NCBI GenBank assembly: GCA_045863295.1
Contig: BTWA01000023.1
Location: forward strand, 1-64,000
DNA: 64,000 nt
Reading direction: 5' to 3'
DNA from: Candidatus Hydrogenedentota bacterium
GTDB lineage: Bacteria > Hydrogenedentota > Hydrogenedentia > Hydrogenedentales > SLHB01
This document shows, one piece after another, positions 16,712 through 46,650 of this stretch (position 1 is the stretch's first letter; every line of letters begins with the position of its first letter). The position numbers and the translations under genes were made by a program. The notes beneath the pieces were generated by a model that was not told the DNA's origin, did not search any database, and saw only the letters and a list, made by a program, of their open reading frames with translations.

Positions 16712-18289
16712 TCATTCGCGATCGTCCTCCATCTGGCTCTTGCTTTCAGATTGTGAGTGAATGGCATGCGGCCGACGTGTAGAAGCGATTTCCAACCGTT
16801 CTTGAATCGATTGCCCCTGCTTCGAGTCCGTTTTTGTCTCTACAGAAAACTCGTCTGGTTTGATTGCGCCACTTGTTGTCGGTTGTTGCGCTTGATCGTT
16901 GCATTGCGATTCAGGCGTGAAGCCGGTGCCCTGTGCGGGCAGGCCCACTCCACGCGGAAACGCCTCCGGCTGTACTTTGCCGTCTTTGATGGCTTGTTCG
17001 TACGTGGTAAGGATTTCAGACAGGGGATCCTGGGTTGGGGGTGTTTGGTTGGGCGTGCGCTTTTCATCACTCCGAGTCAAGGATGGAGCGGGTCTTGTTG
17101 ATTTCTTGTTTGCTCGGTAGCAGGCGAGGATGTGGTCTCGGTGGCTTTGGGCGTAGGGTTGGTCGAGGAGGGTGGCGTTGTCGAAGGCTTGGCACATTTC
17201 GATGTCGCGGCCTTGGCCGGCGGCTTGGATGGCTTGTTGGATGTAGGCTTTGGCGTGGGTCTGGGGGGATTGGGGCGGGAGTTGGAGGGCTTGGAGTGTG
17301 GCGGGGTCGAGGCTGGTGTCGTGTTGCATGCGGTGGGCGTGGCGGAGGATGCCTTCGGGGGTTGGGGGTGCGGGGGTGTGTTTTTGACGGTTCAAGGGGG
17401 TATGGGCTGGGGCGTGGAGGGTGCGGAGGGAGGCCCTAAGTTCGCGCATGAGACGGACATAGGCGGTGATCATGGCGGGGGTGTCGGGGGACCATGGGGT
17501 GGCGGCGTTTGCGACAGTGGTGGCGGCGGCGTTGGCGAGGACTTGGAGCATGGCGACGTTGTGGGCGGTGTGGAGTCCCATGGGGTTGGGGTGGGGCTGG
17601 GTTTCGACGACGGCGAGGGCGTCGGTGAGGACGGTGTTGTATTCGAGGCGTTGGTAGGGGCAGGGGGCTTCGCCAGGCTGTAGACTGTAGGCTGCAGGCT
17701 GTAGGGGGGATGGGGATGGGAAGGACTGCAAGGACATTCTGGACGGATCCTCCTTCGCTGAAGCTACGGAGGACAGGCCCTCCTTCGCTGAAGCTTCCTC
17801 CTTCGTTAAAACTACGGAGGATGAGTCGGGGGACCAGATGGGGCCCTCCTTCGCCGAGGCTTCCTCCTTCGTTAAAACTACGGAGGACGAGACGGCGGCG
17901 TGGGGGCAGGTTTGGTGGTGGGGGCAGGTGGTGGTGCAGGTTTTTAGGCGGCGGGAGTAGAGGCCGTGGATGGTGTGGTTGCGGTTGCCTTTGGGGGCGC
18001 CGGTTTGGTTGAAGCCGCCGTGGTGGGGGCAGCGGCCTGAGGGGTGGTTGGAGGGGTTGGTGCAGGGGGTGGCTTCCTCCTTCGCTGAAGCTACGGAGGA
18101 CGAGCCCTCCTTCGCTGACGCTTCCTCCTTCGTTAAAACTACGGAGGACGAGTCGGAGGAGGGGGCGGGGGTGCGGGCGCCGCAGATTCGGTGGTTTAGT
18201 TGTTTTTCTTTGGCTTCGACTATGGCGATCCATTCTGGGGTCCAGGATCGGGCGCAGGGGGTGCCGAGGGTGGTGGTATGGGTAGGCAT
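16712..18289 (-). CDS. HGGxSTG-domain-like (phage small-terminase-like) protein interrupted in frame by repeat elements
   Basis: 'ICGART...TPC...GRCPHHGG...GAPKGNRNHTIHG' zinc-knuckle signature; AAGGA RBS upstream; the SSVVLTKEE and SSVASAKE(E) peptides are encoded by DNA palindromes. Confidence 0.6.
   Translation of the reverse strand: MPTHTTTLGTPCARSWTPEWIAIVEAKEKQLNHRICGARTPAPSSDSSSVVLTKEEASAKEGSSSVASAKEEATPCTNPSNHPSGRCPHHGGFNQTGAPKGNRNHTIHGLYSRRLKTCTTTCPHHQTCPHAAVSSSVVLTKEEASAKEGPIWSPDSSSVVLTKEEASAKEGLSSVASAKEDPSRMSLQSFPSPSPLQPAAYSLQPGEAPCPYQRLEYNTVLTDALAVVETQPHPNPMGLHTAHNVAMLQVLANAAATTVANAATPWSPDTPAMITAYVRLMRELRASLRTLHAPAHTPLNRQKHTPAPPTPEGILRHAHRMQHDTSLDPATLQALQLPPQSPQTHAKAYIQQAIQAAGQGRDIEMCQAFDNATLLDQPYAQSHRDHILACYRANKKSTRPAPSLTRSDEKRTPNQTPPTQDPLSEILTTYEQAIKDGKVQPEAFPRGVGLPAQGTGFTPESQCNDQAQQPTTSGAIKPDEFSVETKTDSKQGQSIQERLEIASTRRPHAIHSQSESKSQMEDDRE
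17675..17705. repeat. Heptamer tandem repeat (AGRCTGY x4)
   Basis: aggctgt agactgt aggctgc aggctgt agg. Confidence 0.7.
17748..17898. repeat. Cluster of five 30-bp palindromic elements, including two nested pairs
   Basis: Units at 17748-17777, outer 17778 with inner 17796-17825, and outer 17844 with inner 17862-17891; consensus TCCTCCTTCGYTRAARCTACGGAGGAYGAG. Confidence 0.92.
18075..18160. repeat. Cluster of three 30-bp palindromic elements, including one nested pair
   Basis: Unit at 18075-18104; outer 18105-18160 with inner 18123-18152. Confidence 0.92.
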
Positions 18290-18350
18290 GGTGGGGGTGT
18301 CCTTTTGTTGTAGTGGTCCTTATTTATTTAGGGCGGGGTGTTGCAGTTGC

Positions 18351-18560
18351 AGGCCGGAGGCGGGAGGCTGGAGACCGGAGGGATTAATTGTGAGAAGGTG
18401 AGAACGCGGGGAGGGGAGTCGTCCACAGATTGCACGGATTTTCACAGATAATAAGCGAAGTGGGGATGTGGGAATGGTGGTGGGTTTGGCATCTGGCAAG
18501 GGTCGCTATTTGGAGTGCGCTGGCAGAGCCCGCTTAGGCGGGCGGCGACGGCGCTTTGGC
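18351..18560. repeat. Intergenic patchwork of short repeats and palindromes
   Basis: Heptamers aggccgg/aggcggg/aggctgg/agaccgg (18351-18378); CAC(A/G)GAT x3 (18424-18449); hairpin GCCCGC-TTAG-GCGGGC (18528-18543) within a longer imperfect palindrome. Confidence 0.6.
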
Positions 18561-18796
18561 TCTTTGGAAAATGGGGTGGCGAGGTTTGTTGTGGCGTTTG
18601 GTTTGCAGGGCGGAGTCTGTACTTCGAGAGCAAGAAACTGTGTCTTGGCTTTCGCAAAGCTTCAACTAAGACTCAACGAAGACTCTTTCTTGGAGGATGG
18701 TGGTTCAATATTGATTGGACTTTGGTAACGGATCACCGAGTAAACTTAGGCAATGCCATTTTGATATACTTATCATAGACAGGTAGGAGATGAACT

Positions 18797-19594
18797 ATGG
18801 GACTCTGGCCCAGCGACGCGTTCAAGAAGGGAGTTGCGAGTAGTATCGTGGTATTCGCACTAATCGTTGGTGTGGCCTTGTACTTTATAGATCAAATATA
18901 CAAGCTCAAGGATGAGCAACGACAAATGATTGAGACAGAACTTACGAACATGACAACTCGGGCCGACGACCTTAGCCAGCAACTGGCGGAACTTATCAGT
19001 CAAAAATGGCGCGAAAAATATGAAGCCGAACGACTTCAAGTTGAAACCTTGTCGGAGGAAGCATCACTTATTAGGAAGCAATATGAAGATCAAATTAAGG
19101 AATTGACTGCTGGGTTCAAGGGGACTGCACAGCCAGACACGGCAAGCCTGATTTCTGGTATTGCCCAGTTGCGGCGAGAAAAGGAGATTCTAGTGGAAAA
19201 GCTTGAGCTTGCCAACTCAGAGCTCTCTCGACTTCGCGAAATATATACTAAGTCTCCATCTCTCTTTTTGCCTTCGGGCGGTCTCGAAGCAGCTACCAAG
19301 AGTATCCATGGAACTAATTCAATCGAAGTGAAGCGAGGTGAGGGATGGTCTAGTCCAGATGGAATTGTTACGTTTGGGGTTGAGGGAATAAGCGTCAATC
19401 GTGCACGGCCAGGAATATCGGCAAGCCACAACGCCGATGTAAAAGTGTTTGGCGAACGTCAAAAGGCGCAAGCCGGTTCCACATTCTCTAAAGAAATTGA
19501 AGGTCAGGTCTATCGTGTCAATGTGATAGGCATAAATGCGACCGATCAAACAGTGACCATAGTATACGCGGGACCAGTAGGTAATCCCAAGTAG
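18797..19594 (+). CDS. Hypothetical protein: N-terminal TM, coiled coil, C-terminal beta-rich domain (lower GC)
   Basis: AGGAG RBS; single TM segment then an E/L/Q/K heptad-rich region. Confidence 0.8.
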   Translation: MGLWPSDAFKKGVASSIVVFALIVGVALYFIDQIYKLKDEQRQMIETELTNMTTRADDLSQQLAELISQKWREKYEAERLQVETLSEEASLIRKQYEDQIKELTAGFKGTAQPDTASLISGIAQLRREKEILVEKLELANSELSRLREIYTKSPSLFLPSGGLEAATKSIHGTNSIEVKRGEGWSSPDGIVTFGVEGISVNRARPGISASHNADVKVFGERQKAQAGSTFSKEIEGQVYRVNVIGINATDQTVTIVYAGPVGNPK

Positions 19595-19749
19595 CTTATG
19601 GGTTCGAGCGATTCGATTCAGCCTCGAAATGTGTGAAAGTTCTGGCATGCTTATGGGTTGTGGGCCGCTTGATTTGCGGCCCGTTACTGGACTGCTTGCA
19701 GAGAATCAAGTGGTCAATAGATTTCTCATTTGAGAGGCGAGTTTACCAT

Positions 19750-20973
19750 ATGGTGTTCTTGTTGGGCCTTCTTGCAGCAATTTGTTCGGTATGTGCAGCA
19801 TCATTCACGTTCTTGGCCAAAATACAAAGGGACGACGAAAAAAAAGCGACAAAGCGCTTATTTCTTACCGGCTGGACAAGCTTACGCAATGCACCATGGA
19901 GAAACCTTCCTTATGACGTTGCCGTTTGGTTCGTAGGCAAAAAGGTTAGTATTGCGGGCGTATTTGACAAGTTAATGGATGGAAAACGGGGGTATATCCA
20001 TGTATTTGGTGTACCCATTTTGTCGGGGATTGGAATGTGGCTTTGGTTGGGCGCGGTGCCGGCAATTTACGTTTCTTTGGTTGCTGCGGCCGGGGCAGTC
20101 GGGGATTATTTCATCCAAACAAGGAGACTCGGTCTCGAATATGGCTATACCCACTGGCGGAATCTTCTGGATACGGCTGTTTATGGGTCTCTTGGTACCT
20201 CGTGGGTGTTTTGTGGGATAGCTTGGACGGTAGTACTGACTAACATGACACCAATTCATGCAGCGTTTTTGGCGACCGTTTTGGCGCCTTTCGTTTCCAT
20301 TCAGATTGCGTTTCCAAGTTCTGTAGCGCTCCGTGTCTCACAACTACTCTTGGGGCGTGTATCTATCACGTTTTCTGACATTTTTGACCGGGAGTGGAAG
20401 CTTTTTACTTTGTCAGGTTCGTTTAGTTACGTACTGACTTTCTATGCTCTGGCATTGGGTGAGATCACCTCCGCAATTATTGCAGAGGAGGTCACGATTC
20501 AGTTTATAGTATCAAATGTCTTTTTTGATGCGTTGACAGTAATAGTCTCGTTGTTTACTTTGGGATTTGCGACGGGTCCGTCGGGGCGTCGTCTGTGGGT
20601 ACCGCTTGTTTTTCTAGCTGAGATTGTACTTGCTTCTGTTTTTGCGTGCCTTTCCGTGTTTGTTGGACTGTATGGCACTACTCAGCAACTTTCTTTTCGC
20701 CAAGTAGCTCACATATTGCTCGCCAGGTCCGCAGATGGGGGTAGTTTTGAACTGTCTCCCTATTTTTGGTCGATGCACACGACATTTATTCCTGTTGTGT
20801 TGTTGTTCTTGATCGTGTGTGTGGCTTGGATTGGCCGAATGGGTCTAGTTGCTGTTGAATGGTTCACTGGCCGAGGCAAAGATTCAGAAGAGCCCCTGGC
20901 GCTTGTCTCGGCCCTATTTACGCTTTTGGCCGTTGTTTTCGGTACATTTGCTTATCTATTCGGAAAAGGTTAA
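19750..20973 (+). CDS. Hypothetical polytopic membrane protein (lower GC)
   Basis: About 10 hydrophobic segments; ATG 19750 is preferred over GTG 19633, but the start is uncertain. Confidence 0.75.
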   Translation: MVFLLGLLAAICSVCAASFTFLAKIQRDDEKKATKRLFLTGWTSLRNAPWRNLPYDVAVWFVGKKVSIAGVFDKLMDGKRGYIHVFGVPILSGIGMWLWLGAVPAIYVSLVAAAGAVGDYFIQTRRLGLEYGYTHWRNLLDTAVYGSLGTSWVFCGIAWTVVLTNMTPIHAAFLATVLAPFVSIQIAFPSSVALRVSQLLLGRVSITFSDIFDREWKLFTLSGSFSYVLTFYALALGEITSAIIAEEVTIQFIVSNVFFDALTVIVSLFTLGFATGPSGRRLWVPLVFLAEIVLASVFACLSVFVGLYGTTQQLSFRQVAHILLARSADGGSFELSPYFWSMHTTFIPVVLLFLIVCVAWIGRMGLVAVEWFTGRGKDSEEPLALVSALFTLLAVVFGTFAYLFGKG

Positions 20974-21092
20974 TCGCGTTAAGGCGTTCAAAGTTTTAGC
21001 GTTAGGCAGTTGTCTCGCCAGTATGACATTGGGCTGCTGAGCAGCTTCGAACGTTTCCAGCATACAATAATTGGGATTCCTGAAGTCAGGGG

Positions 21093-22115
21093 CTATTTTG
21101 ACAGATAGTCTTTTATCATTGGACCCAAGAATCCGCCAACTATGAGTAACAACAACGCCCAAAATATGTAGACCAAGATCGCAAAACGGCTATAGCTAGC
21201 TCTTAAATCGTCCAGTCTATTTCCATGCTCTTTTCCTGTCTCTGCCATCTTATCGCCGTCCTTCTTCACTGATGCGACGTCCTGTGTAAGTATAAGGACA
21301 TTGCGACTCACTTCCGAGATTTGCTTTGCATTTTCGGTGGTCAGGTTTTCCAGTCTTGTAACCTGATTACTGACCAAGGAAATTGTGCCGGAAAGCTTGT
21401 CCACATCTTGTGAAACACGTTCCACGTTACCAGTCAGCGTCTTGATCGGCTCTATGACATTTTCGTACTTGCTTCGCAGGTCAAGGATCTGTTGAGTAAT
21501 ACTATCGATTTTTTTGACATGTTCACTAAGTTGATGCCAGGAAAGAACCTCCATATTTGCCATGAAGTCGACAAATCCGGCAGGAAACTCACCTTTATAC
21601 AGATAAGGATCTTTGCCTTTCGGGTGTTCCACGGGCTGGCCAAGAGTCTCGAACACGAGACTACATAGAGGTTCCCCTTTTCCCAAAACCACCCGCTTCG
21701 ATGATGCGTTGTAAAACCCAAAGAGCAGATGGCCCTCGTACCCCGGATCGACTTGCGCGCCCGTCAGCAACGCAATGCCTTTGTACGAGAAGGAGCGCTT
21801 CGTATTGATGCGGACCAACATATCCGCTGGAACGCGTATTCGCTCCAACGAGACTACCGCAGCGTAGCATCCCGGGGTTAACTCAAGACGTGATTGGTTT
21901 AGATCTATTTCTGTACCGCTGCCTCCAATCACTGCTCTGCTGCCGATGCGGACATCGTAGGAGCAGGAGTCTAGGCCTCTATCATCGAAGCCATTGGCAT
22001 CTATAAGTGTACCCATTCGCACCAGATCACGAATTTGCGAGTCAAGTAAGACGACGCCGGGCTGTAGCTTTTCTGTAAACAAACGGAGCTGAGTATCGTG
22101 GTTTTCTGACATCAT
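21093..22115 (-). CDS. dCTP deaminase/dUTPase-fold protein fused to a coiled coil and C-terminal TM helix
   Basis: 'LLDSQI', 'SYDVRIG', 'VDPGYEG', 'FYN' resemble Dcd; then roughly 110 aa of heptads and 'FAILVYIFWALLLLIVGGFLG'; GAGGGG RBS. Confidence 0.82.
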   Translation of the reverse strand: MMSENHDTQLRLFTEKLQPGVVLLDSQIRDLVRMGTLIDANGFDDRGLDSCSYDVRIGSRAVIGGSGTEIDLNQSRLELTPGCYAAVVSLERIRVPADMLVRINTKRSFSYKGIALLTGAQVDPGYEGHLLFGFYNASSKRVVLGKGEPLCSLVFETLGQPVEHPKGKDPYLYKGEFPAGFVDFMANMEVLSWHQLSEHVKKIDSITQQILDLRSKYENVIEPIKTLTGNVERVSQDVDKLSGTISLVSNQVTRLENLTTENAKQISEVSRNVLILTQDVASVKKDGDKMAETGKEHGNRLDDLRASYSRFAILVYIFWALLLLIVGGFLGPMIKDYLSK

Positions 22116-22328
22116 GCCCCCTCACAAACCGGAAGTACTTTAGTATACTCCTTGCAAGGTGATTGTGAACGGTAATTGTGGCTTATTCAACTTTAATTGC
22201 GTCGCCGGTGGGCGCGGTCGACTGGCGTAAGAGGTTGACCTTGCTTTGGCTGCGGCAGGCGAGTGCAACAAGCTGGTCTTTAAAGGATGGAGGGGTGTGT
22301 TTGGTTTTTTTGAGATTGGAGGTTTTGT

Positions 22329-23816
22329 GTGATGGTGCCGTTGGTGGATTTGTTTAATGCGTTGATGGTGGAGCGGGTTGGGTCGGGGGATGTTGCCGAG
22401 GCTGGGGCTGGCGTAGAGGCTGAGGCGTGGGAGGATTTGGGGTCGCGGGTGGGGTTTGCGAACCGGTTTTTGCGGGATCGGGGTGGGGCGGCTTGGGTGC
22501 CGCGGTGGTATCAGCATCGGTCTTTGGATTCGGTGGCGGAGCGCAAGGTCCATTGCGACGGTCGCGATGTTGGGAAGACTTCTGAGATCGAGATCATTGC
22601 GGCGTGGGCTTCGGTGGCGCGGCCGAATTCGGAGATGTTGATTGCGACGCAGTGTGAGAATCATTTGTTTCCGTTGATGGATCGGATTGTGCGGGTGTTT
22701 GAACGGAATCCTGCGTTCAGCGGGACGTTGGTTGATATTAAGCGCACGCCTTCGTGGTGTTTGCGGTTTTCGAATGGGTTTGTGTTGTGGGGGCGGATTG
22801 CGGGGCCGCATGGGATGAATTTTCAGGGGTTGCATGTGGATTGGCAGATTGTGGATGAGGCACAGGAGATGACGGATGCGGCGTGGGAGGAGTTGTTTCA
22901 GGCGTTGAATGGGGGCGGGATGCGGTGGGTGTATGGGGTGCCGAATGGGTTGCGGAACACGTTTTACCGGATGACGCAGGATCCGAAGCCGGAACAGTAT
23001 TCTTGGCCGTCGTCGCTGAATCCGGAATTCACGGCGGAGAAGGATGCGGAGTTGGCGCTGTTGTATGGCGGGCGGGATTCGGCGGGGTATGTGCATCGGG
23101 TGTTGGGGCAGCATGGATCGCCTGCGTATGCGGTGTTCGATCTGGAGGCGTCGGGGGCGGGCGGGGCGGCGGGGGCGGCGTCCGGGTCGGGGGCGCGGGG
23201 GGCGGCGGAGGGGGCGGCGGCGGGGGGGGGGGGGGCGCGGGGGGAGTATTACCTGGGTTGCGATTTGGGGTATGTGCGCGATCCTTCTGAGTTTGTGATC
23301 TATCGGTGGGATGCGCCGGATTTGGTGAATGTGGGGCGGGTGCAGTTGCGGGGGGTGAATTATCATCGGCAGCAGGGGATCATCGAGGCGTTGGATCGGG
23401 CGTATGATTTTCGGGTGGTGGGCATTGATGCGGGGAGCAATGGGAGTGCGGTGGCGCATAACCTGAAGGCGATCGATCGGTTGTGGCATGAGAAGGTGAT
23501 GGCCTTTGCGTTCGGGGGCATGACGGAGGTGGGGGAATTTCCGGATGGGGGATCGGATCGGCGGCCGACGAAGTTGTTTATGACGGAGTTGCTGCAGCGG
23601 CGGATGGCGGATCGGACGATTGTGTTTCCGGTGTTGGCGGATCGGGAGTCGCAGTATGCGGGGCACACGTATAGCTGCGGGTTGCGCAATCAGATCCTGT
23701 TCGACAAGGGCAATGATCACATCATCGATGCGGATCGGTGCGCGGTGTTGGCGCATTACTTGGATACGCAGGACCGCGGGACGTATTGCCGGCCGCTGGT
23801 GATCGAAACGTTTTAA
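22329..23816 (+). CDS. Phage terminase large-subunit-like protein (ATPase + RNase H-like nuclease)
   Basis: Walker A 'GRDVGKT', Walker B 'IVDEAQ', 'GVPNG'; nuclease motifs 'LGCDLG..RDPS', 'GIDAGSNG', 'NDHIIDA'; GGAGG RBS. Confidence 0.85.
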   Translation: MMVPLVDLFNALMVERVGSGDVAEAGAGVEAEAWEDLGSRVGFANRFLRDRGGAAWVPRWYQHRSLDSVAERKVHCDGRDVGKTSEIEIIAAWASVARPNSEMLIATQCENHLFPLMDRIVRVFERNPAFSGTLVDIKRTPSWCLRFSNGFVLWGRIAGPHGMNFQGLHVDWQIVDEAQEMTDAAWEELFQALNGGGMRWVYGVPNGLRNTFYRMTQDPKPEQYSWPSSLNPEFTAEKDAELALLYGGRDSAGYVHRVLGQHGSPAYAVFDLEASGAGGAAGAASGSGARGAAEGAAAGGGGARGEYYLGCDLGYVRDPSEFVIYRWDAPDLVNVGRVQLRGVNYHRQQGIIEALDRAYDFRVVGIDAGSNGSAVAHNLKAIDRLWHEKVMAFAFGGMTEVGEFPDGGSDRRPTKLFMTELLQRRMADRTIVFPVLADRESQYAGHTYSCGLRNQILFDKGNDHIIDADRCAVLAHYLDTQDRGTYCRPLVIETF

Positions 23817-26281: not shown

Positions 26282-26792
26282 GCGTGTCCCCTTTCATCAG
26301 AGTGCTCAATGCTTTTTTGGCGCGGTTCAGTTTGACGCCCACGTTGCTTTCGGAGATGCCGAGGATTTCCGCCATTTCGCGGTAGCTGAGTTCGTCGAGA
26401 TAGAGCAGGACCAGCGCCGTGTCGGCTTTGGGCAGCTTATGAATGGCCTTGTAAAGTTGATCGACGGTGTCTCTGTGCTGCACTTGTTCGGCTGTGCTTG
26501 GGGCTTCGGCTTCCATGTGCACTTCCAGCAGCGGTTGCTGAAACGAGCGGCGGGGTTTGTCTTTCCTGTGCCAATTCATGGCGGTATTCAGCGCCACGCG
26601 ATAGAACCATGTGGCGGGGCTGGAGTTTCCCTGAAACGCAGGCAGCGATTGCCATGTTTGTAGCAGGATTTCCTGGGCGAGGTCCTGGCACTCTTCGTTC
26701 GTAAGCGTATAGGCGCGCGCCACTTTCATAATGGCCGCGCCGTGCTGGCGCAGCCATTCCATGTACAACATGTGTTGATCGCGGTGTGTCAT
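26271..26792 (-). CDS. ECF-type RNA polymerase sigma factor
   Basis: 'DLAQE', 'TWFYRVALN', 'LSYREMAEILGISESNVGVKLNRAK'. Confidence 0.95.
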   Translation of the reverse strand: MTHRDQHMLYMEWLRQHGAAIMKVARAYTLTNEECQDLAQEILLQTWQSLPAFQGNSSPATWFYRVALNTAMNWHRKDKPRRSFQQPLLEVHMEAEAPSTAEQVQHRDTVDQLYKAIHKLPKADTALVLLYLDELSYREMAEILGISESNVGVKLNRAKKALSTLMKGDTHEP

Positions 26793-26863
26793 AGTTTCGC
26801 CTTCGGAGATATTGGTACCTCGTGCGGGCGCGTTCTTACAACGAATTCTGCAGGAGACACGAA

Positions 26864-36640: not shown

Positions 36641-36997
36641 TCATGGAATCGGTTCGGCAATTTCCATGGAATTGCCATCGGGGTCGAGCAGCACGCAGTC
36701 TTGAAGACCCCAGGGCTGGTTTTTTAGAGGTTGTTTAAACAGTACGCCGTTTGCGGCAAGTGAGGTCACCTAGTTGGCGAGGTCCTCGACCATGATGTGG
36801 CAGTGGCCTTGGCCGGCGCGTTGTGGGTTGACAGCGAGGTGCACTTCCGCGGCGTCGCGCCGAACCACGGCGAAGACTGCCGGTTCTCTGTTGGTGTAAG
36901 CGATTTGAAATCCGAGCGGGCCGGCCCAGAATGTGAGGGCACGCGAATGATCCCTGATATAAAAAGTGGGTGCGACGCGGCCGAGTTTTGTGGGCAT
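36641..36997 (-). pseudogene. VOC/glyoxalase/bleomycin-resistance family gene with an internal in-frame TAG
   Basis: After TAG at 36772-36770 the same frame continues VTSLAANGVLFKQPLKNQPWGLQDCVLLDPDGNSMEIAEPIP*, a canonical VOC C-terminus. Confidence 0.85.
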
Positions 36998-37056
36998 GGG
37001 GGGATCCTCAGCGTTGGTGCAACGGTTGCTATTCTAACTTCGTCTGTTGTTCTCGT

Positions 37057-38589: not shown

Positions 38590-38794
38590 TAATCCGGCTC
38601 CTCTTGCACGCAGAAAAGCGGCCCCCCGGTCTGCGCGTTGCAGCGTATGAGAATACTTCGGAGTCACAGACCAAGACCAGCGATTTTTCACGGCCTCGAG
38701 ACGCAATTGCGCCGATGCCCATCATGCACTCCACCCGCGACATGTGGCACACTGCCACCCAACACACCTGATACAAAGAGAGGAGGATGCCGCA

Positions 38795-40459
38795 GTGTCC
38801 GATCACAAACCGTTTCGCGTCCCCCGGCGTGGCTTCATGGGAACCGTGGCTGGCGGCGTCATGGCCGCCGCCACATCAAACAGCCTCGCACAGGAGTCCA
38901 TTGGTGTAAGCCGTCCGCGCAAGCCGAATGTCCTGTTTGTCATGACCGATCAGCAACGCGCGGATACCATCGCCGCGCTGGGCAATCCGGACATCTATTC
39001 ACCCAACTTCGACCGACTCGTTGCGCGGGGCGTCTCCTTCTCCAACGGGTACAGCGCGTGCCCCGTGTGCGTGCCGGCGCGCTACAACATCCGCACCGGC
39101 CGCGAAATGCCCACCACCGGCGTCTATCATAACGGCGCCCCGAATCTGGTGGAAGGCCAATCCGAAAACATGGAAGAACGATGCGGCCCGTACCTCGCAC
39201 GCACCATGGCGGCCAACGGATATCGCACCTTCGGCGTGGGTAAATTTCACACGATGCCCCGGTTCGAAGATGTTGGCTACCACGTGCACCTCCACAGCGA
39301 AGAGATCTACGGCACGCCGGAAGACCGCGCCAACGACGCGTTCGCACAATACATCGCCCGCGTATGCCCGGCCTACGATTTTCAAGAAGGCCTCATGGGC
39401 GAGCGCACCGAGATGTACTACATGCCGCAGATGAGCGCCATGCCCGCCGAACACACCGTCGAAGCATGGGCAGCGGCGCGCGCCGTCGAACAAATCCGGC
39501 GGCACGACGACGACCGCCCCTACTTCGGATTCGTATCATTCGTCGGACCCCATCCGCCCTTCGCGCCACCCATCCCGTTCAATCGCATGTACGACCCCGA
39601 CCGCATGCCCAACCCCGTGCGCGGCGATCGCAATCTCGATCTCATGGATGAGCAACTCCGCTGGATGAACCACGCCATCTTCGCCGATGACATCAGCGAT
39701 TCGCACGCGCGGGTGTGCCGCGCGCGGTACTACGGCGAGCTAACCTACATCGACCACTGCCTCGGAATGATCCTGGACGCGGTCGATGCGCGCGACGACG
39801 CCGACAACACGCTGATCTGCTTCTACTCCGACCACGGCGATCACCTTGGCGATCATCACGCATGGCAAAAGGAAAGTTACTTCCAGCAGTCCTGCAACGT
39901 GCCGTTCCTGCTGAGTTGGCCAGAGCGGTTGCCCGCGGGAACGCGCCGTGAGGACCTCGTCTCGCTGACCGACCTCTTCGGCATCGCCACCACCGCCGCG
40001 GGCGCACAAGAACTGCGCGACGGCGTGGACGTGATCGGCGCCATCGAAGGCAACGCGCAACCGCGCGAGCACCTCTTCGGATACTACGGCATCCCCGGCA
40101 CCGCAAGGTTCAAAATCATGGTGCGCAGCGGCGATTGGAAATACATCTTCATGGCCAACGGCGGCCAGGAACAGTTGTTCAACCTCGCCGAAGACCCGCA
40201 AGAACACAAACAACGCATCCACGACGCGCCAGACATCGCCGAGCGCCTGCGCACCGCCGCCCGAAAAGCCCTCAATCAACCCAACGCCAACCGCGCCCTC
40301 ACACCAGACGGCGATCTGTTACACCTCCCACAAGAAGACCGCCCCCTACGCCGCATCTACCAATTCGACGCCTCACGCGGCGTACGTGGCTTCCCGGAAA
40401 AACCAGAGCAAGTGGCAGGACTCGACACGCTTTGGTTCGACAAGATCAAAGGCGTGTGA
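38795..40459 (+). CDS. Sulfatase (formylglycine-dependent), Tat-like signal
   Basis: 'TDQQR', 'CVPAR' (CxPxR), 'GKFH', 'SDHG'; AGGAGG RBS before GTG 38795. Confidence 0.93.
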   Translation: MSDHKPFRVPRRGFMGTVAGGVMAAATSNSLAQESIGVSRPRKPNVLFVMTDQQRADTIAALGNPDIYSPNFDRLVARGVSFSNGYSACPVCVPARYNIRTGREMPTTGVYHNGAPNLVEGQSENMEERCGPYLARTMAANGYRTFGVGKFHTMPRFEDVGYHVHLHSEEIYGTPEDRANDAFAQYIARVCPAYDFQEGLMGERTEMYYMPQMSAMPAEHTVEAWAAARAVEQIRRHDDDRPYFGFVSFVGPHPPFAPPIPFNRMYDPDRMPNPVRGDRNLDLMDEQLRWMNHAIFADDISDSHARVCRARYYGELTYIDHCLGMILDAVDARDDADNTLICFYSDHGDHLGDHHAWQKESYFQQSCNVPFLLSWPERLPAGTRREDLVSLTDLFGIATTAAGAQELRDGVDVIGAIEGNAQPREHLFGYYGIPGTARFKIMVRSGDWKYIFMANGGQEQLFNLAEDPQEHKQRIHDAPDIAERLRTAARKALNQPNANRALTPDGDLLHLPQEDRPLRRIYQFDASRGVRGFPEKPEQVAGLDTLWFDKIKGV

Positions 40460-40583
40460 GCGTCCAGTTCTTAAGGGGAGAGTGGGCGCAAGGAACTGCT
40501 AAAAATGGGTTGAGGTTGTAGCAGCTCGACTGCAAGCATTTTGGCCGGAAATTGGGCCCGTTTTGGATCCGCGAGATTACCCC

Positions 40584-43500
40584 CTAAGTGTTTGACTCTT
40601 GATTTGCTGGTGAACGGCATTTCCTGAGATCAACACGAAATGTCCGTGCGTCGAGTGAATCGTCTGGAATTTCGCAATATCGAGTAATCGTAACTTCATT
40701 GGCATCGTCAGCCGATAGATGTTCGACGTTCCACAATTCCCAGCGGTATGACCGCTTTTGGAGATACTCCTTGTACTGCCTGCTTGTAATCTCAACAATG
40801 GTCGCGCGGCCTGTGTGTGTTTTTACCTCTACGCGAAGTTCTTCGCCGTTCCCAAATGCCCGAAGGTCAAAGCCGGGATTCAATTGTGACATCTTTTCCA
40901 CCGAATAGCCAAAGTCGTGCAGTGCTTTTTCGGCAAAACATCGGCCCGCTTCCTCCAACTCGGCTTTTTCCTGTTCCGTAAGCACAGATCCCTCATGTTC
41001 AGTTCGTGCACCTCCTGCGCCGCCGCTACCGAGCGAGGGTTGTGCCTCTTGATGATTCGCTAATTCGTATTGGGACGCGCTGGGATCCTTGAGCCGGAGA
41101 GGCCGCTTCGCAGACGAACTCGGTCCAGTTGACCCACCAGGCCCGCCGTCATTTTGGCCTCGTACAGAGAATTCGTCTTGCGTAGGTTTCGTGCCACCAC
41201 CGAAAAGTGGTTTTCCAACATCATTGCTTGAATTCTTCTCGCTGTTCCCCTGCGCCTGCGAATGCGCTTGGGCGGCGTTACTGACTGAGGCCCCTCCGAC
41301 TGATTCATCGCGTCCATCCTCATGATCTTCATCGAAGACGCGTCCGCCATAATCGCGGAGGCGGCTCTCCACCTCGGCGGCAGCAATGCCTTTACTTACA
41401 AGCTTCTCCATGCGCTGCGCGTCGCTGTTGCAGCGAAGGAGGTTCTCGTAAAAGTCAGCTTCCGACTTGGCGTCAACGAATTTCGCTACGGCTTGTCCCA
41501 ATTCTACTTCGTTCGCATGGTCTGCATGGATGTATATCTTATCTTCGTTTACATGCCAGCGTCGCGGGACCTCGCGCTGCGCGTTCTCCAGAGTCAATTT
41601 CGCGTTCAGCGTCGCCACAACTACACCATTTAATTCCTGTAGGCGAGCCGATAGATTCTCAGTAATCTGCTTGCTCCGCGTTGACCTCCAGGCATATACG
41701 TACCCCAAGGACTCTCTTAATCGCACCTGCAACTCTTCCGGGAGGCTGGACTCCTGAACCTCCATATTAACTTGTTCTTCGACTGACTCAGCGAGAGACA
41801 AGACATCGAAGTACTTCTTAGCAGCAGAACGCGAGTTAGAACTGATATGGAAAAGCCATACGTCATGCGCAAATGCGTTTACTAATGTGTTGTCATCGTC
41901 AAGATATCGCCGTTCCTTTGCAACGTACTTCCATGAGTCTCCCTTGCGGCAAAGTAGTGGACACGATGCGAAAGCACCGGGTAAGAGGTTCTCATCATTG
42001 ACTACCTCTTCGAGGCACGCAGTATACCATTTTACTATTCTGTCACGGACTTGTTCGTCCGATGCAACGCGATCGATCGGGGCCATTTCCGGTATGCGAT
42101 TCGACAGTATGGCTTTCCAATCATCTAGAGTTGTTTCACCGATTCGCTTACGAAGAGGGTGAGGAACGTCATTGCTAAGCCAGTTACGGACAACATTCTC
42201 GTCTTCGCCAAAAACACTAAGATCAATGACGGGAAGAAGATCCCCAATTGATTGCTGAGTTCGCTTGTCAGGAATCCAGTGTGAGGTGAGCGGAATGTGA
42301 TCCCTACGGTCATCACGCCTCGGTATAGGAAGTCTCTCGCAGACATCCCACCACCACTTTGCATTGACTTGCCATTGCCTGTAGTTCTGCTCCCTGCCTT
42401 TAGACCCCTTAGCCTTGATCTCTATATAGTTGCAATAGTACCTTGCCCAGTGCCTTGCTAGCAGACGGATTACCAATGTTGCCTTGCCCAGGTCGAGGCT
42501 AGCCAATGATAGCCTATCCAGATTGGTTACGCAGGCAACCCGGGCAACAAACCGCCCCTCATTGTCTTGCACAGTACTGAGGTAACTCTTCCACTCCCCG
42601 CAGTCCTCGGGTAACTGCCGAATGGCGGTCTCTTGGCGTTCCTCCACAACACGGGGATAGTCAGTGACGCCGAGCCAATTCAAGACTTGACGCTGCTGCT
42701 CCCTTTCATCTCCTAAACCATCGAAAGCGACCCAAGCCATGCCCTCCACTTCAGCGTAAAGTCTCTCTAAGAGTTCGTTTTCCCAGTCACGCCCGAAGTA
42801 AGCCAATCTCGCCTCACACCACATATTTTCTTCCACTAGCTGCGAAAGCGGGACGGGACATCGTTTTAGAGCCTCTGTCGCCTCCAATGTCTCATGCCAG
42901 TCCTGCTCAAGAATGAAACGAAGAAACCGCCCCGGATCGCCACGTTTGTCTTTCCAGTACTGCACGATTGCCTGGCCGACAGCACGCTGTATAACATTGT
43001 CGTCCGGCCCGTCGATGCCCAACTCTTTACAGAGTTTCTTGACAGGATGGTCCAGCTCGGTCAAACTCCGGATTCTGTCTCGGAACCAGTCTTTCACGAA
43101 AACCAGCGGCAGCCAATCGGGTAGACAGTCCACCCCAGCTTTCGGTGTCCATGTCACAATACGACCTGCGAGATCTGCACCTTTCAGCAGCTTACCGTCG
43201 ACAGGCACAACGGGTAACTTTTTAACATCCGCCACGCGCTTCTTATGTTCATCTCCGTAAGGCCTTTCCGCGACCCAGGCACTAAGCCACTCCCAACAAG
43301 TCCAGATCCATTCTGGGTCATCGATGTGCGAGTTGGCATTCTTACCGATGGCTGTCAACAACTCCTGATCGGCGATACTCTTACAGCCCAACTCCCTGAG
43401 CGCCTCTCGTGCTTCTATATTCTCGTCAAAGGTGGAATGCAGCAATTCTCCTCGGGCATCGGTGGCATCGAGCAAGGTCCGCCCCAAGTCGGAGTGCACG

Positions 43501-44732
43501 CTAACCGAGATCAGTCTAGCTTTGTCAATGGACAGGTGCTGGTTGCCGTCGACGTCGGCGAGTCGGAGGTCCGTAATCGCCTTTTCTGCAATGCGTTGCC
43601 AGAGATCTCGGGCGACTGGGTGGGAGTCCCTGCCATCGAACGGAGCTAGAAGCGCCACATGACTACTCGGCGCTTCGGGGCGGTACATAGCGTTCACAAA
43701 CTTGCAAACGTGGGAAGCAAGTCTGTCCGCAACCCATGCATTAAAGGGGCTGCCATCGAAGTGTATGAGGGCGGTTCGGTCACTCTTGACGAAGAATTCG
43801 GCATGAAGGAGCAGGCGTAACGGACCTTTCTGCTCCGTGGGGTAGAAAACGTGTATGGGAAGGTAGTCGGTTGTCGGTACAAAACTACCGTCCTCACGTG
43901 GTGTGGCAATAAGAAAGCTCACGCCACCCGAAGAGATGCCACTGCGCTCATCACCACTCAAATTCTTTAGCAGGTCGCCTGGTGGAATTTCAGCATATCT
44001 ATAGACCTGCCACTCATTCGGAGTAACCCCTCGGGTGTCGCTTATCGACCATACCCCGTTTCCCTCAGTTAGGATAATCTCCAGTTCAGGTGCTTCTATT
44101 CGTCGTACGTTTCGAAAGGCAAAAAGAGAATGAGGGGGCCACTCTTTAAGTAGTTGCCCCGCAGCCCGCATCTTTTCCGCCTGAATGCCACGAAGGACAA
44201 CAACTGTTTTGCAGCTGGAGAACGTCTCGAGATCGGAGTCGAGTTCTAGCGCCTTATCCCACAAGATAGGGAATGGAATCCATTGATAGGGTACATGCTC
44301 ACCATCGAATCCATTCGATTTCAGCCAGTCTTTGGCCTTACATACGTCGAACTCAATACCTTCTCCATTCACAGTGAGCACTTGGGGGTTGCGGGATACG
44401 TCGTAGACCGACTTAAATCCCACGCCTTTACGACCGATCATTCCGGCAGACTTATCCGAATAGTCGGTGCCGCAAATGGCGCTCACAGCTGAAGGGCAAA
44501 GACCTACTCCACTATCCGCCACGTATATGGCGTTGTTATTGAAGTGTATTCGAACTTCCGTGGCCTTGGCGTCATCGCAATTCTGTAGAAGTTCGAACAA
44601 CCATCGTCCTACGTGGTCTTTGGTCGCACGTTCTGCACTCCGCGCATCACGCACAATCTGCCCCGCATCGACCTTATAGACATCGAGGCGTTTCTCTCGG
44701 AAATATTCTATTGCGTCCCATATAGCACCCAT
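40584..44732 (-). CDS. Sacsin-like N-terminal GHKL ATPase + C-terminal DUF3883 (PD-(D/E)xK) nuclease-like protein, lower GC
   Basis: 'ELLQNCDDA', 'DSGVG', 'GRKGVGFKSV'; C-terminal 'NPGFDL...VEVK...ITSRQY'. Confidence 0.85.
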   Translation of the reverse strand: MGAIWDAIEYFREKRLDVYKVDAGQIVRDARSAERATKDHVGRWLFELLQNCDDAKATEVRIHFNNNAIYVADSGVGLCPSAVSAICGTDYSDKSAGMIGRKGVGFKSVYDVSRNPQVLTVNGEGIEFDVCKAKDWLKSNGFDGEHVPYQWIPFPILWDKALELDSDLETFSSCKTVVVLRGIQAEKMRAAGQLLKEWPPHSLFAFRNVRRIEAPELEIILTEGNGVWSISDTRGVTPNEWQVYRYAEIPPGDLLKNLSGDERSGISSGGVSFLIATPREDGSFVPTTDYLPIHVFYPTEQKGPLRLLLHAEFFVKSDRTALIHFDGSPFNAWVADRLASHVCKFVNAMYRPEAPSSHVALLAPFDGRDSHPVARDLWQRIAEKAITDLRLADVDGNQHLSIDKARLISVSVHSDLGRTLLDATDARGELLHSTFDENIEAREALRELGCKSIADQELLTAIGKNANSHIDDPEWIWTCWEWLSAWVAERPYGDEHKKRVADVKKLPVVPVDGKLLKGADLAGRIVTWTPKAGVDCLPDWLPLVFVKDWFRDRIRSLTELDHPVKKLCKELGIDGPDDNVIQRAVGQAIVQYWKDKRGDPGRFLRFILEQDWHETLEATEALKRCPVPLSQLVEENMWCEARLAYFGRDWENELLERLYAEVEGMAWVAFDGLGDEREQQRQVLNWLGVTDYPRVVEERQETAIRQLPEDCGEWKSYLSTVQDNEGRFVARVACVTNLDRLSLASLDLGKATLVIRLLARHWARYYCNYIEIKAKGSKGREQNYRQWQVNAKWWWDVCERLPIPRRDDRRDHIPLTSHWIPDKRTQQSIGDLLPVIDLSVFGEDENVVRNWLSNDVPHPLRKRIGETTLDDWKAILSNRIPEMAPIDRVASDEQVRDRIVKWYTACLEEVVNDENLLPGAFASCPLLCRKGDSWKYVAKERRYLDDDNTLVNAFAHDVWLFHISSNSRSAAKKYFDVLSLAESVEEQVNMEVQESSLPEELQVRLRESLGYVYAWRSTRSKQITENLSARLQELNGVVVATLNAKLTLENAQREVPRRWHVNEDKIYIHADHANEVELGQAVAKFVDAKSEADFYENLLRCNSDAQRMEKLVSKGIAAAEVESRLRDYGGRVFDEDHEDGRDESVGGASVSNAAQAHSQAQGNSEKNSSNDVGKPLFGGGTKPTQDEFSVRGQNDGGPGGSTGPSSSAKRPLRLKDPSASQYELANHQEAQPSLGSGGAGGARTEHEGSVLTEQEKAELEEAGRCFAEKALHDFGYSVEKMSQLNPGFDLRAFGNGEELRVEVKTHTGRATIVEITSRQYKEYLQKRSYRWELWNVEHLSADDANEVTITRYCEIPDDSLDARTFRVDLRKCRSPANQESNT

Positions 44733-44929
44733 AATTAATCTCGTGCCCTCTTTGTCGCATCAACAGCGAAGCCACCACCCAGAATCAGCATCACATTATA
44801 AGTTCTCACCAACACTTGTGCATACTTCACCTGTCTCCTGGAAGTGAGACGCATCAAGGCAGATTATTTCTAAATAGATTCGTTACTTAAGCTGATGTGA
44901 GTATCTTAGCAAGAACATCTATTTCCGAT

Positions 44930-45060
44930 TCATCCTACCGCAAACGCGTGCCCTGAAGCGGATTTAAGTTAACGCTCGAAGTCCACCGCTTTGTCCTTGC
45001 ATTGTCTCAAGTCTTGAGTCACGGTGAGGCAGAATTTGGACATGACGCAATTCCCCTTTT
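44930..45060 (-). pseudogene. Decayed GIY-YIG nuclease gene fragment
   Basis: Minus strand 44998-44930 translates as KDKAVDFER*LKSASGHAFAVG*, against KEKAVAFERYFKSGSGHAFANK in the intact gene at 46074-46316. Confidence 0.8.
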
Positions 45061-45068
45061 ATTTTCGC

Positions 45069-45113
45069 CTCATTCTTCGCTCCCTTCTTCAACAAGGCTA
45101 TTAAGGGCGGGAA
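45069..45113. repeat. Degenerate nested 30-bp palindromic element
   Basis: ...TTCTTCGCT[CCCTTCTTCAACAAGGCTATTAAGGGCGGG]AA has the same junctions as the copies at 46407 and 46563. Confidence 0.8.
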
Positions 45114-45231
45114 CCAATTGGCCGATAATGAAGTAGGATACCGCCAGACATCCGGCGGGGTCCGGCCACCATGGTCATGCCAGTCGCCGATGGGAGAATG
45201 ACCCCGGATACCTGGTAACGAAAGGCGCCCC

Positions 45232-46005
45232 ATGCATCTTGAGCCCATTGGAACATTCCACTGCGAGGCGCAGTACCCTTACGACGCCGCGCGGCAGCCG
45301 GCTATGGCAGAGCCAACGGGTGGGCATATCGTGTTGGAAAAAGGCCACAACTACGAGCAAGCGTTGCAGGATATCGAGCGCTTCTCGCATATCTGGCTAC
45401 TTTACGTCTTTCACCACAACCCGCATTGGAAGCCCATGGTCCGGCCACCACGCGCGTCCAGCAAGGTGGGCGTCTTCGCCAGCTGCGCGCCCTACCGTCC
45501 CAACCCCCTTGGCCTCTCCTGCGTGGAACTGATCGCAGTCCAAGGCCTGATCTTAACTGTTGGTCCGCACGACCTCCTCGACGGTACGCCCATCCTTGAC
45601 ATAAAGCCCTACCTTCCCTATGCCGACAGTGTTCCCGAAGCGACGTGCGGCTGGGTCGAGGAGGTGGCAGAGGACGCGTGGGAAGTGTGTTTTGCCTTGG
45701 AAGCCGAGCGGCAACTCGCTTGGCTGGAACGAGCAGGGGTTCAGGCAATCCGCGCGTTCCTGCGTCAGCAACTCAGCGAACTCCCCTTCGACCAACAGCG
45801 CAAACGCATCCGGCCGCTAGCCGGCGCACAGTGGGAAATCGCGTACCGCACATGGCGGATCGAGTACGGCGTAGACGAAGCGGCGAGGAAGGTGGTGGTA
45901 CAGCAGGTTCGCTCCGCATACACCGAAGAGGACTTGCTGAGCGTGGAAGATAGATACCAGGACAAGGCGGCGCACCGGGCGTTTCGCAACGCATTTCGCA
46001 CGTGA
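45232..46005 (+). CDS. trmO: tRNA (t6A37-N6)-methyltransferase TrmO/TsaA
   Basis: 'FSHIWLLYVFH', 'VRPPR', 'GVFA...PYRPNPLGLS', 'DLLDGTPILDIKPY'. Confidence 0.92.
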   Translation: MHLEPIGTFHCEAQYPYDAARQPAMAEPTGGHIVLEKGHNYEQALQDIERFSHIWLLYVFHHNPHWKPMVRPPRASSKVGVFASCAPYRPNPLGLSCVELIAVQGLILTVGPHDLLDGTPILDIKPYLPYADSVPEATCGWVEEVAEDAWEVCFALEAERQLAWLERAGVQAIRAFLRQQLSELPFDQQRKRIRPLAGAQWEIAYRTWRIEYGVDEAARKVVVQQVRSAYTEEDLLSVEDRYQDKAAHRAFRNAFRT

Positions 46006-46006
46006 A

Positions 46007-46062
46007 CCCTTCTTCGCCGAGGCTTCGAAGGGCATGCCCTTCATAGCCTTGGCGAAGAAGGG
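46007..46062. repeat. Inverted doublet of the palindromic element (REPIN/BIME-like)
   Basis: CCCTTCTTCGCCGAGGCTTCGAAGGGC (46007-46033) and an inverted copy at 46036-46062 (rc CCCTTCTTCGCCAAGGCTATGAAGGGC). Confidence 0.9.
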
Positions 46063-46073
46063 CGTGCCTTTGC

Positions 46074-46316
46074 CTACCAAAGCCGCTTGTTCGCGAATGC
46101 ATGCCCCGAACCGGATTTGAAGTAGCGCTCGAAGGCTACCGCCTTCTCCTTATCCGAAATGGCAACGTAAGTAATCAACTGCCATGGGATGTACTTTGAA
46201 GTGTGAGACGAGCGGCCAGCGTTATGGTCGATAATGCGTTGCTCAAGATTGTCCGTAACCCCGGCATATCGCTGCTTGGGATTGGATTCGCTGACGATGA
46301 GGTAGACGTAGGTCAT
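46074..46316 (-). CDS. Stand-alone GIY-YIG nuclease (80 aa)
   Basis: 'YVY...YAG.T..L..R...HN.G...T', 'A..FE...K'; the catalytic Tyr/Arg/Glu pattern appears intact. Confidence 0.92.
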   Translation of the reverse strand: MTYVYLIVSESNPKQRYAGVTDNLEQRIIDHNAGRSSHTSKYIPWQLITYVAISDKEKAVAFERYFKSGSGHAFANKRLW

Positions 46317-46340
46317 GTATGATGTGGCCCCCCGATCATA

Positions 46341-46650
46341 CCCTACGTCGCCAAGGCTACATAGGGCATGAAGCTCGTTCACACAATAGACCGGCTCTTC
46401 TGCGCTCCCTTCTTCGCTGAAGCTACGAAGGGCGGGAATGCTATGAAGAGCACCACCATTCGGCTTACTCGCTACGCTCGAGCAAATCTAGCCTTCATCC
46501 TGCAAGAATTACCGGTTTGCCATCCGAAGCTCGTTCATACCAGCGACTGGCCCTTCTTCGCTCCCTTCTTCGCTTAAGCTACGAAGGGTGGGAAAGCTAC
46601 GAAGGGCACCATCCTTCGCTTAACTCGCTACGCTCGAGCGAAGGATGGTG
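46341..46650. repeat. Palindromic-element cluster: one single unit, then two 114-bp direct repeats each holding a nested pair, ending in a 14-bp hairpin
   Basis: Unit at 46341-46367; direct repeats 46370-46483 and 46526-46639; inner units 46407-46436 and 46563-46592; hairpin arms 46607-46620 and 46637-46650. Confidence 0.9.

Follow-up and report, generated by a model that had tools for sequence, protein, structure and literature searches.

A short purine-loop hairpin accompanies a small GIY-YIG nuclease gene behind tRNA and tmRNA genes

The DNA analyzed here, hereafter the window, is the 64,000-nt stretch at the start of contig BTWA01000023.1 in the genome assembly of Candidatus Hydrogenedentota bacterium (GCA_045863295.1). 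It contains the gene of an 80-aa single-domain GIY-YIG nuclease (positions 46074 to 46316, minus strand) with copies of a short hairpin on both sides of it. This 26-nt hairpin, which we call H, has a 6-bp outer stem, a purine internal loop in which G-N-A faces G-N-A, a 3-bp inner stem and a 2-nt apex. Comparison with other genomes showed that H and the gene belong to a cassette made up of the 3' CCA of a tRNA or transfer-messenger RNA (tmRNA) gene, a palindrome termed P1, H, and the gene of the 80-aa Slx1-like nuclease. The cassette begins exactly after the CCA of tRNA or tmRNA genes; at the same position, some related genomes have it and others lack it. H is further found alone, in tandem arrays, nested within another H, and inserted in frame in genes.

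The cassette and its hairpins in the window

Followed in the direction of the gene, the cassette locus (44.9 to 46.7 kb; all features on the minus strand unless noted) opens with a 13-nt copy of the tmRNA 3' end, GCCGCCTCCACCA (46646 to 46658), which sequence comparison showed to be joined to P1 as it is behind the intact tmRNA genes of relatives. P1 (46607 to 46650), an inverted repeat with perfect 14-bp arms (CACCATCCTTCGCT and AGCGAAGGATGGTG), corresponds to the first cassette hairpin of the relatives. There follow a nested H, a second module, a proximal H ending 24 nt before the ATG, the nuclease gene with its stop codon (Pfam PF01541, E 7.9e-15), and two H copies in inverted orientation behind it. 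Much of the leader is a direct repeat (46370 to 46642) of two 117-nt modules, 46370 to 46486 and 46526 to 46642, which are 85% identical and each combine a palindrome with a nested H and a GAGCTTC segment.

The nests are hairpins within hairpins. In the one at 46551 to 46606, an outer H (CCCTTC-GTA-GCT...AGC-GAA-GAAGGG), visible as an inverted repeat, carries in its loop a perfect H with CCCTTC/GAAGGG arms (46563 to 46588; found by pattern and by R1, the covariance model introduced below, to which all bit scores refer). In the other (46395 to 46450), read directly from the sequence, a degenerate outer H encloses a perfect CCCTTC/GAAGGG copy (46407 to 46432, 49.1 bits); the CTCTTC/GAAGAG arms, which an earlier reading of the bare sequence (the sequence-only reading) had listed among the variants of the outer stem, are the outer pair of this nest. 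The proximal copy, CCCTAT-GTA-GCC-TT-GGC-GAC-GTAGGG (46341 to 46366, 39.6 bits), is degenerate; in its outer stem, the sixth pair is T.G when the minus strand is read but C.A when the plus strand is, as had been proposed. Behind the gene, both copies are degenerate: one, right behind the nuclease stop codon, is oppositely oriented and has an ATA/GAA loop on the plus strand (46037 to 46062, plus strand, 45.5 bits), and the other has a GAA/GAA loop (46007 to 46032, 42.5 bits).

A homology search revealed the remnant of a second GIY-YIG gene (44939 to 44998; 20 aa, 75% identical, with an in-frame stop), upstream of which lies a degenerate H, CCCTTA-ATA-GCC-TT-GTT-GAA-GAAGGG (45082 to 45107, 39 bits). 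The gene trmO is bracketed by the intact cassette and this decayed one, about 1 kb off at 44939 to 45107. Contigs from four DNA runs over 44500 to 47500 showed no joints, and the window is devoid of tRNA and tmRNA genes. In a related organism, a 23-kb contig of ~87% identity matches only trmO (45120 to 45998) and differs on both sides of it, which is suggestive but too divergent to serve as an empty site.

The remaining copies lie within a 525-aa open reading frame (ORF; 16712 to 18289, minus strand), and all have TCCTCC/GGAGGA outer arms. TCCTCC-GTA-GCT-TC-AGC-GAA-GGAGGA (17748 to 17773, 44.8 bits) is in sense orientation within the ORF; those at 17796 to 17821 (45.8 bits) and 17862 to 17887 (47.9 bits) have a GTT/AAC inner stem. 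Two more have GCT/AGC (18075 to 18100) and GTT/AAC (18123 to 18148) inner stems. As direct repeats, partial copies abut the following full copy at 17778 to 17795, where the inner stem, GAA and the 3' arm are present but no 5' arm of their own, likewise at 17844 to 17861, and at 18106 to 18122. All of these read on the minus strand.

In total, H is present in the window seven times in perfect and four times in degenerate form, and no copy was found elsewhere in the 6.3-Mb genome: R1, a covariance model built from the 11 window copies, recovered only these, at two loci, at E < 0.1. The copies and all stem variants named in the sequence-only reading are present when read on the minus strand, with the TCCTCC and CCCTTC stem types side by side as it had said; those at 45082, 46007 and 46037 come in addition. 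The loop sequence GTA-N8-GAA without stems is not enriched in the window (22 found against 16.0 +/- 4.5 in shuffles). Genome-wide, however, seven of the 2476 GTA-N8-GAA sites have six of six outer and three of three inner pairs, all seven in the window, where by our arithmetic simple independence predicts ~0.01. Viewed from the stems, 59 N-free genomic 26-mers have both of them perfect, and GTA/GAA accounts for seven, every other loop pair for at most two. The copies of H in the window are thus real and far beyond chance.

Structure, covariation and strand asymmetry of H

To gauge covariation, structure-pair counts were compared with those of 500 shuffles and of controls in which the pairing partners were slid. 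Two alignments were used: A3, with 48 distinct copies of H from a set of 101 related genomes (our own, G000, included), and A5, with 115 distinct copies from a cross-phylum set comprising the best 80 of at least 592 nuclease loci, one genome per species. In A3, 93.1% of the cells were paired as against 41 to 63% with slid partners, seven of the ten pairs were altered on both sides, and no shuffle reached the covariation score. A5 gave much the same picture (90.5% against 32 to 47%; seven of ten pairs covarying; no shuffle out of 500 at the covariation score), although two count measures were reached by 10 and 23 of the 500 shuffles. That both stems change by compensatory substitution while the purine loop is retained, the central claim of the sequence-only reading, is therefore borne out in relatives and across phyla alike.

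The inner G-C and C-G pairs beside the loop are invariant (115 of 115 and 114 of 114 cells). What is fixed in the loop itself is the G-N-A/G-N-A purine pattern and not the GTA/GAA combination that had been thought to be mostly retained: in A5, GAA/GAA is commonest with 73 of the 115 copies, followed by GTA/GAA with 18 and GAA/GTA with 8. Its middle position forms U-A in 19 copies and A-U in 8, and is unpaired, mostly A.A, in 84. The proposed likeness to loop E falls with these counts. A loop E or sarcin-ricin (bulged-G) motif needs an invariant U.A and an asymmetric loop, neither of which is seen in the 115 copies: they lack a conserved U.A, and their 3x3 loop is symmetric. Rfam had no match at gathering score in the window, and at E <= 1 there were two sub-threshold chance matches, MIR476 and a trypanosomatid snoRNA, between 44800 and 46800 and none between 17500 and 18400.

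On the opposite strand, the purine loop becomes a set of pyrimidine mismatches. Solo copies also keep a Y-G dinucleotide 5' of the stem, which is all that is conserved there (alignments A1 to A5). Selection on one particular strand, as had been suggested, agrees with the sense orientation of H at 68 of the 80 cross-phylum loci (see below) but draws less from the other measures: wobble pairs favor G.T over A.C by 7 to 1 in the relatives yet by 10 to 8 across phyla, and the purine strand folds better by only ~1.2 kcal/mol, whether with RNA parameters (mean -10.1 versus -8.9 kcal/mol) or DNA parameters (-4.7 versus -3.4 kcal/mol). The strand asymmetry of H rests on its purine loop, its fixed orientation to the gene and this small energy difference.

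The nuclease

PF01541 spans residues 2 to 69 of the 80-aa protein, for which no NCBIfam model matched. An AlphaFold model based on 80 sequences is compact, with a predicted local distance difference test (pLDDT) score of 94.5. When this model was used for a fold search, the top 10 matches were all Slx1, HIGLE or UPF0213 proteins, with template modeling (TM) scores of 0.57 to 0.75 at 24 to 29% identity and with UvrC and I-TevI far behind; the nearest solved folds are At-HIGLE (7wme), yeast Slx1-Slx4 (7cq2, 7cq3, 6sei) and the UPF0213 protein BH0048 (1zg2). At the sequence level these matches are weak (E 0.015 for 1zg2 and 0.57 for an SLX1 homologue). Across the 80 sequences, R27, H31 and E63 are invariant and Y3, Y5, Y17, G19 and N32 are at least 90% conserved; we take the conserved Tyr, Arg, His/Asn and Glu positions to be the catalytic residues of the GIY-YIG fold. 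Slx1 is known to cut branched and stem-loop DNA. Slx1 and UPF0213 (YhbQ-like) proteins are thus the best structural matches of the predicted nuclease, which, unlike Slx1, has no RING/PHD domain and no Slx4 partner; we know of no hairpin repeats associated with Slx1/UPF0213 proteins.

In its C-terminal half, the nuclease carries an FERYLKSGSG motif, where a second type of small GIY-YIG protein has REKQIK. The two families are nonetheless related, with hhalign giving 97.7% probability (E 1.5e-12, 32% identity over 69 columns). Our genome also has a gene of the REKQIK type, on another contig (C17:35008-35217, L145). No relative of the cassette nuclease was found in the plasmid collection at E <= 1e-10.

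H and the nuclease gene in related genomes

Among the 101 genomes, R1 detected H in 23, with up to 43 matches in one, and the nuclease gene was found in 18 at a threshold of E <= 1e-5. Ten genomes have both, 13 only H, 8 only the gene and 70 neither, counts in which kin are not independent. Close homologues of at least 50% identity are encoded in eight genomes, seven of which also have H matches, and H lies ~50 to 160 nt from the gene in our genome and in six relatives with a close homologue (in G082, second gene copy).

Away from the gene, H takes several forms. Most solo copies are intergenic, often in low-complexity DNA; at four such loci (L004, L018, L020, L030), short tandem low-complexity repeats with 6- to 9-nt units often lie beside a solo H. 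Tandem arrays occur in the genome with the most matches, G087, where a 40-nt unit of the 26-nt H plus a 14-nt spacer is repeated at C198:1-170 and C277:420-490 (L170, L171). In one relative (L014:1501-1536), the gene of a thiamine pyrophosphate (TPP) enzyme contains, between the parts for its middle and C-terminal domains, a sense H that is in frame and has a longer loop; this is a second intragenic case besides the 525-aa ORF. The orientation of solo copies to neighboring genes was judged for the few ORFs with Pfam domains: one such gene contains a sense H, three have a sense H upstream, and in two cases, both uncertain, H is antisense.

The cassette behind tRNA and tmRNA genes

Beyond the relatives, the nuclease is encoded at no fewer than 592 loci in a collection of species-representative genomes. 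Its hosts include Alphaproteobacteria, Verrucomicrobia, Nitrospirae, Chloroflexia, Parcubacteria, Binatia and others, and at the best 80 loci the protein is still 56 to 69% identical to that of the window, which points to horizontal spread.

A sense H (R1) ends 0 to 115 nt, most often 5 nt, before the start codon at 68 of these 80 loci, and at 62 a tRNA or tmRNA gene on the same strand ends within 500 nt upstream, typically at 82 to 109 nt; these RNA genes are for Ser (29), Tyr (7), Leu (5), Val (5), tmRNA (4) and others (12). Nearly all R1 matches (149 of 150) are upstream of the gene, 86 in sense and 63 in antisense. The latter arise because the P1-type hairpin, with its TTC/TTC loop, reads as GAA/GAA on the other strand, so that the two hairpins form an inverted pair; the antisense matches inspected were indeed P1-type hairpins. 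The canonical leader accordingly reads tRNA CCA, TTC/TTC-loop hairpin, a segment perfectly complementary to its first arm, H, ~5 nt and ATG. In these leaders (L065-L144), the first arm behind the CCA has two possible partners, the near, imperfect one that makes the TTC/TTC loop and the distal, perfect one before H, alternatives that look like a switch or like nested insertions.

H lies within 12 nt of the start codon at 46 loci, and at 33 of them its 3' arm contains a tetramer resembling a Shine-Dalgarno (SD) sequence (GGAG, GAGG, AGGA or similar). In mRNA, such an H would therefore pair the ribosome-binding site with the CCUCC-like 5' arm.

The tmRNA flank of the relatives shows a presence/absence pattern at one orthologous site: out of 29 tmRNA loci, 3 have the gene just downstream, 1 a remnant palindrome, and 25 no such cassette. 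In two genomes (G008 and G071), the P1-type palindrome begins directly after the tmRNA CCA; in G068, the nuclease of which is only 31% identical, the DNA behind the CCA is unrelated. The junction in the window, i.e., the 13-nt tmRNA end followed by TCCTTCGCTCGA, nearly matches that behind the intact tmRNA gene of G008. At C19:312-1888 (L190), our genome's own tmRNA gene stands directly before the gene of a 391-aa tyrosine integrase (Phage_integrase, E 3.4e-33), the position of which marks an island in the tmRNA 3' end. Because the window holds a 13-nt tmRNA end while the own tmRNA abuts an integrase gene, we infer that the cassette locus of the window is the original tmRNA flank with its cassette, displaced by the integrase-bearing island; alternatively, the cassette may have carried a piece of the tmRNA end along when it moved.

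H inside a protein-coding gene

The 525-aa ORF, a member of a multi-copy gene family, carries its copies of H as two in-frame blocks, as seen from an alignment with eight homologues from relatives. All five copies are sense and translated in a single reading frame. The first block is a clean 30-residue insertion (90 nt, including the copies at 18075 and 18123) in a conserved Cys-rich region, with all eight homologues lacking residues ~42 to 71; the second sits in a linker of variable length. The family itself has 13 matching segments in our genome and many per genome in 26 of the 101 relatives, shares a conserved Cys-rich N-terminus, and gave only a sub-threshold NCBIfam match (HGGxSTG). It may belong to a mobile element. 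Near position 16000, the GC skew flips sharply, from -0.12 in the 12- to 16-kb bin to +0.22 in the 16- to 20-kb bin.

Comparison with known systems

The closest parallel is offered by the Ssn proteins, single-domain GIY-YIG nucleases classed as CDD cd10448 (Chenal et al. 2025, PMC11893778). According to that paper, these nucleases, among them SsnA of Neisseria meningitidis, bind a directional hairpin repeat, NTS/SRM, only as single-stranded DNA (ssDNA) and cut upstream of it; their activity is strand specific, with none on double-stranded DNA or RNA; and Ssn genes are flanked by the repeat, with 81% of repeat-rich genomes carrying the gene. On every point checked, the cassette resembles the Ssn system: there, too, an 80- to 95-aa single-domain GIY-YIG protein without a DNA-binding domain is encoded between short directional hairpin repeats that are also dispersed in the genome, the distribution is wide and patchy, and some repeat-rich genomes lack the gene.

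There are also differences. The two nucleases appear to belong to different subfamilies, with REKQIK in the presumed Ssn type and FERYLKSGSG in the cassette protein. The published SRM pattern with its 5' GTC tag has no match in the 64-kb window, and just one of the 80 loci has any; H differs from SRM, as described there, by its purine 3x3 internal loop and by lacking a CGTC tag. Whereas Ssn repeats lie on both sides of the gene, the hairpins of the cassette are upstream only (149 of 150 matches at the 80 loci). Finally, neither tRNA nor tmRNA occurs in the main text of PMC11893778, while the cassette is fixed behind such genes.

Two Mesorhizobium species, M. tianshanense and M. temperatum, carry the cassette nuclease gene. 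In Supp. Data 4 of PMC11893778, both are listed without an SsnA homologue (tblastn NO), with a cd10448 hit at the loose threshold only (psiblast YES, CDD score > 100 NO) and with no SRM enrichment (0.75 to 0.83 fold), and in the representative genome of M. tianshanense the only GIY-YIG matches are the cassette nuclease and a UvrC-sized ORF. Genomes that are tblastn positive in the same table do contain a small GIY-YIG protein of the REKQIK type, which by its sequence is probably the Ssn type proper. Given the SRM misfit, the link to tRNA genes, the Mesorhizobium rows and the distinct REKQIK type, we place the cassette nuclease as a probable sister family of Ssn with a hairpin of its own.

H also resembles the repetitive extragenic palindromic (REP) sequences and REPINs that accompany RAYT genes. 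These too are short imperfect palindromes, recognized in that system as ssDNA hairpins, that flank an enzyme gene and form inverted hairpin pairs, clusters or arrays, and dispersed solo copies. RAYT, however, is a Y1 HUH tyrosine transposase, whereas the gene flanked by H is GIY-YIG; H has no GTAG or CGTC at the end of the palindrome, the tag of REP, but G-N-A-G between its outer and inner stems; and H has a low copy number (at most 43 matches per genome in the 101 genomes) and is tied to tRNA/tmRNA 3' ends.

For the in-frame insertions, the Rickettsia palindromic elements (RPE) come to mind, which are ~100 to 150 bp long and lie in frame inside genes that stay open. H shares with them the position of a palindromic repeat in frame within protein-coding genes, but the sequences are unrelated, and we know of no nuclease associated with RPE. 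Full-text searches of the literature returned no title or abstract start describing a GIY-YIG hairpin cassette linked to tRNA or tmRNA genes.

Discussion

In the account that we favor, and to which we give an even chance, H would be the hallmark hairpin of a small cassette that spreads horizontally, with a nuclease that recognizes H when single-stranded, nicks, and thereby spreads copies. Recognition of H by the GIY-YIG protein is plausible, and nicking at single-stranded H, combined with a second role of H as a translational operator, appears to be the most likely mechanism. By analogy with Ssn, the mini-nuclease would recognize H on one DNA strand only. Specificity would reside in the purine mismatches and in the Y-G conserved at the 5' flank, with the stems as mere scaffold, which may be why they covary. 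Nicking would take place nearby, and repair or copying at the nicks would spread the cassette and solo copies of H, in a way resembling the dependence of REP/REPIN on the RAYT enzyme. Where, as in the canonical cassette mRNA, the SD-like sequence is the 3' arm of H, H would probably also throttle translation of the nuclease.

Several observations weigh against this account, chief among them the genomes with many copies of H and no gene. Five of the ten genomes with at least eight H matches have no gene of the family at E <= 1e-5: in G011 (26 matches), G079 (13) and G041 (8), there is only a UvrC-sized GIY-YIG domain, and in G087, with its 43 matches, only a short GIY-YIG fragment. H is therefore maintained, and may be amplified, in genomes that have no such nuclease of their own. 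Eight of the 101 genomes present the reverse case, a gene without any H match. Our own genome, with 11 copies at two loci, bears no sign of genome-wide spread, and for the 90-nt insertion in the 525-aa ORF neither a target-site duplication nor a precise empty site was definable against the eight homologues. Strand specificity is another concern, since the asymmetries of wobble pairs and folding energy are small. The pair counts of A3 and A5 are biased toward structure, both alignments having been fitted to the model. Lastly, in the lineage of the window, 24 to ~130 nt separate H from the start codon and the SD-like arm of the proximal copy has been lost, so that the translational role is not a general one.

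If that translational role were instead the main one, H would act as RNA: as a stem-loop in the nuclease mRNA's 5' leader, possibly transcribed along with the tRNA or tmRNA, it would hide the ribosome-binding site and so limit a potentially harmful nuclease. Solo copies would then be debris, or would now and then supply other genes with a ribosome-binding site. We regard this as rather unlikely. It fits the sense orientation of H and its end mostly 5 nt short of the start codon (68 of 80 loci), the GGAG/GAGG/AGGA-like 3' arm with a complementary 5' arm at 33 of the 46 close loci, the sense orientation of all five copies in the window ORF, and the Pfam-confirmed genes of relatives, with one sense copy inside and three sense upstream against two uncertain antisense cases; purine loops flanked by G.A are moreover stable in RNA. 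Yet it leaves the tandem arrays, nested copies, intragenic insertions and gene-less multi-copy genomes unaccounted for, 13 of the 46 close loci have no SD-like arm, H is far from the start codon in the window lineage, and P1 bears the same loop on the opposite strand, which would be superfluous for an mRNA element. An RNA role of this kind can go together with events at the DNA level.

H might also be a REP-like repeat maintained by the host, whether to bind some host factor, to stabilize mRNA or as a site of recombination, with the proximity of the nuclease being secondary and its target elsewhere, e.g., the tRNA 3' end. In its favor are the multi-copy genomes that lack the gene, the solo copies, mostly between genes and often in low-complexity DNA, and the insertion point of the cassette, which is always the CCA end and never a copy of H. 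We nevertheless consider this possibility improbable: H is in the cassette at 68 of 80 loci across phyla with wholly different hosts and is therefore tied to the gene and not to the host, and the copies away from the cassette in our genome are confined to one gene. Least credible by far is the reading of H as a coding peptide repeat or a chance low-complexity palindrome. The five copies in the 525-aa ORF do share one frame and are translated, but H also lies between genes, takes either orientation and forms tandem units of 40 nt, a length not divisible by 3; its stems covary at the nucleotide level, and the chance expectation is ~0.01 copies, so we reject both versions.

Returning to the nuclease-driven spread of H, a bolder version of it can be formulated, which we offer tentatively and hold to be somewhat doubtful. 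Here, the ~340 bp comprising P1, H and the nuclease gene would constitute a new kind of autonomous mobile element that homes to CCA ends across phyla by hairpin-directed nicking of ssDNA, while H would be at once recognition site, translational operator and a self-multiplying, non-autonomous mini element that nests and enters genes in frame.

For genome annotation, H matters in that it creates spurious ORFs and in-frame inserts, which should be recognized as repeat insertions. If H is the cognate site of the nuclease, the two would be the second very widespread pair of a nuclease and a hairpin beside Ssn/NTS, with at least 592 loci, and with a recognition logic of its own, in which a purine 3x3 loop stands in place of the CGTC tag and the fixed home is behind tRNA and tmRNA genes. 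Such a pair would also account for a frequent trait of tRNA gene flanks that has so far had no name, offer a testable model for the spread of a 240-bp gene and of short palindromic repeats from phylum to phylum, and widen the range of specificities available among site-specific ssDNA nucleases. If the cassette is indeed an autonomous element, it would be among the smallest mobile elements known.

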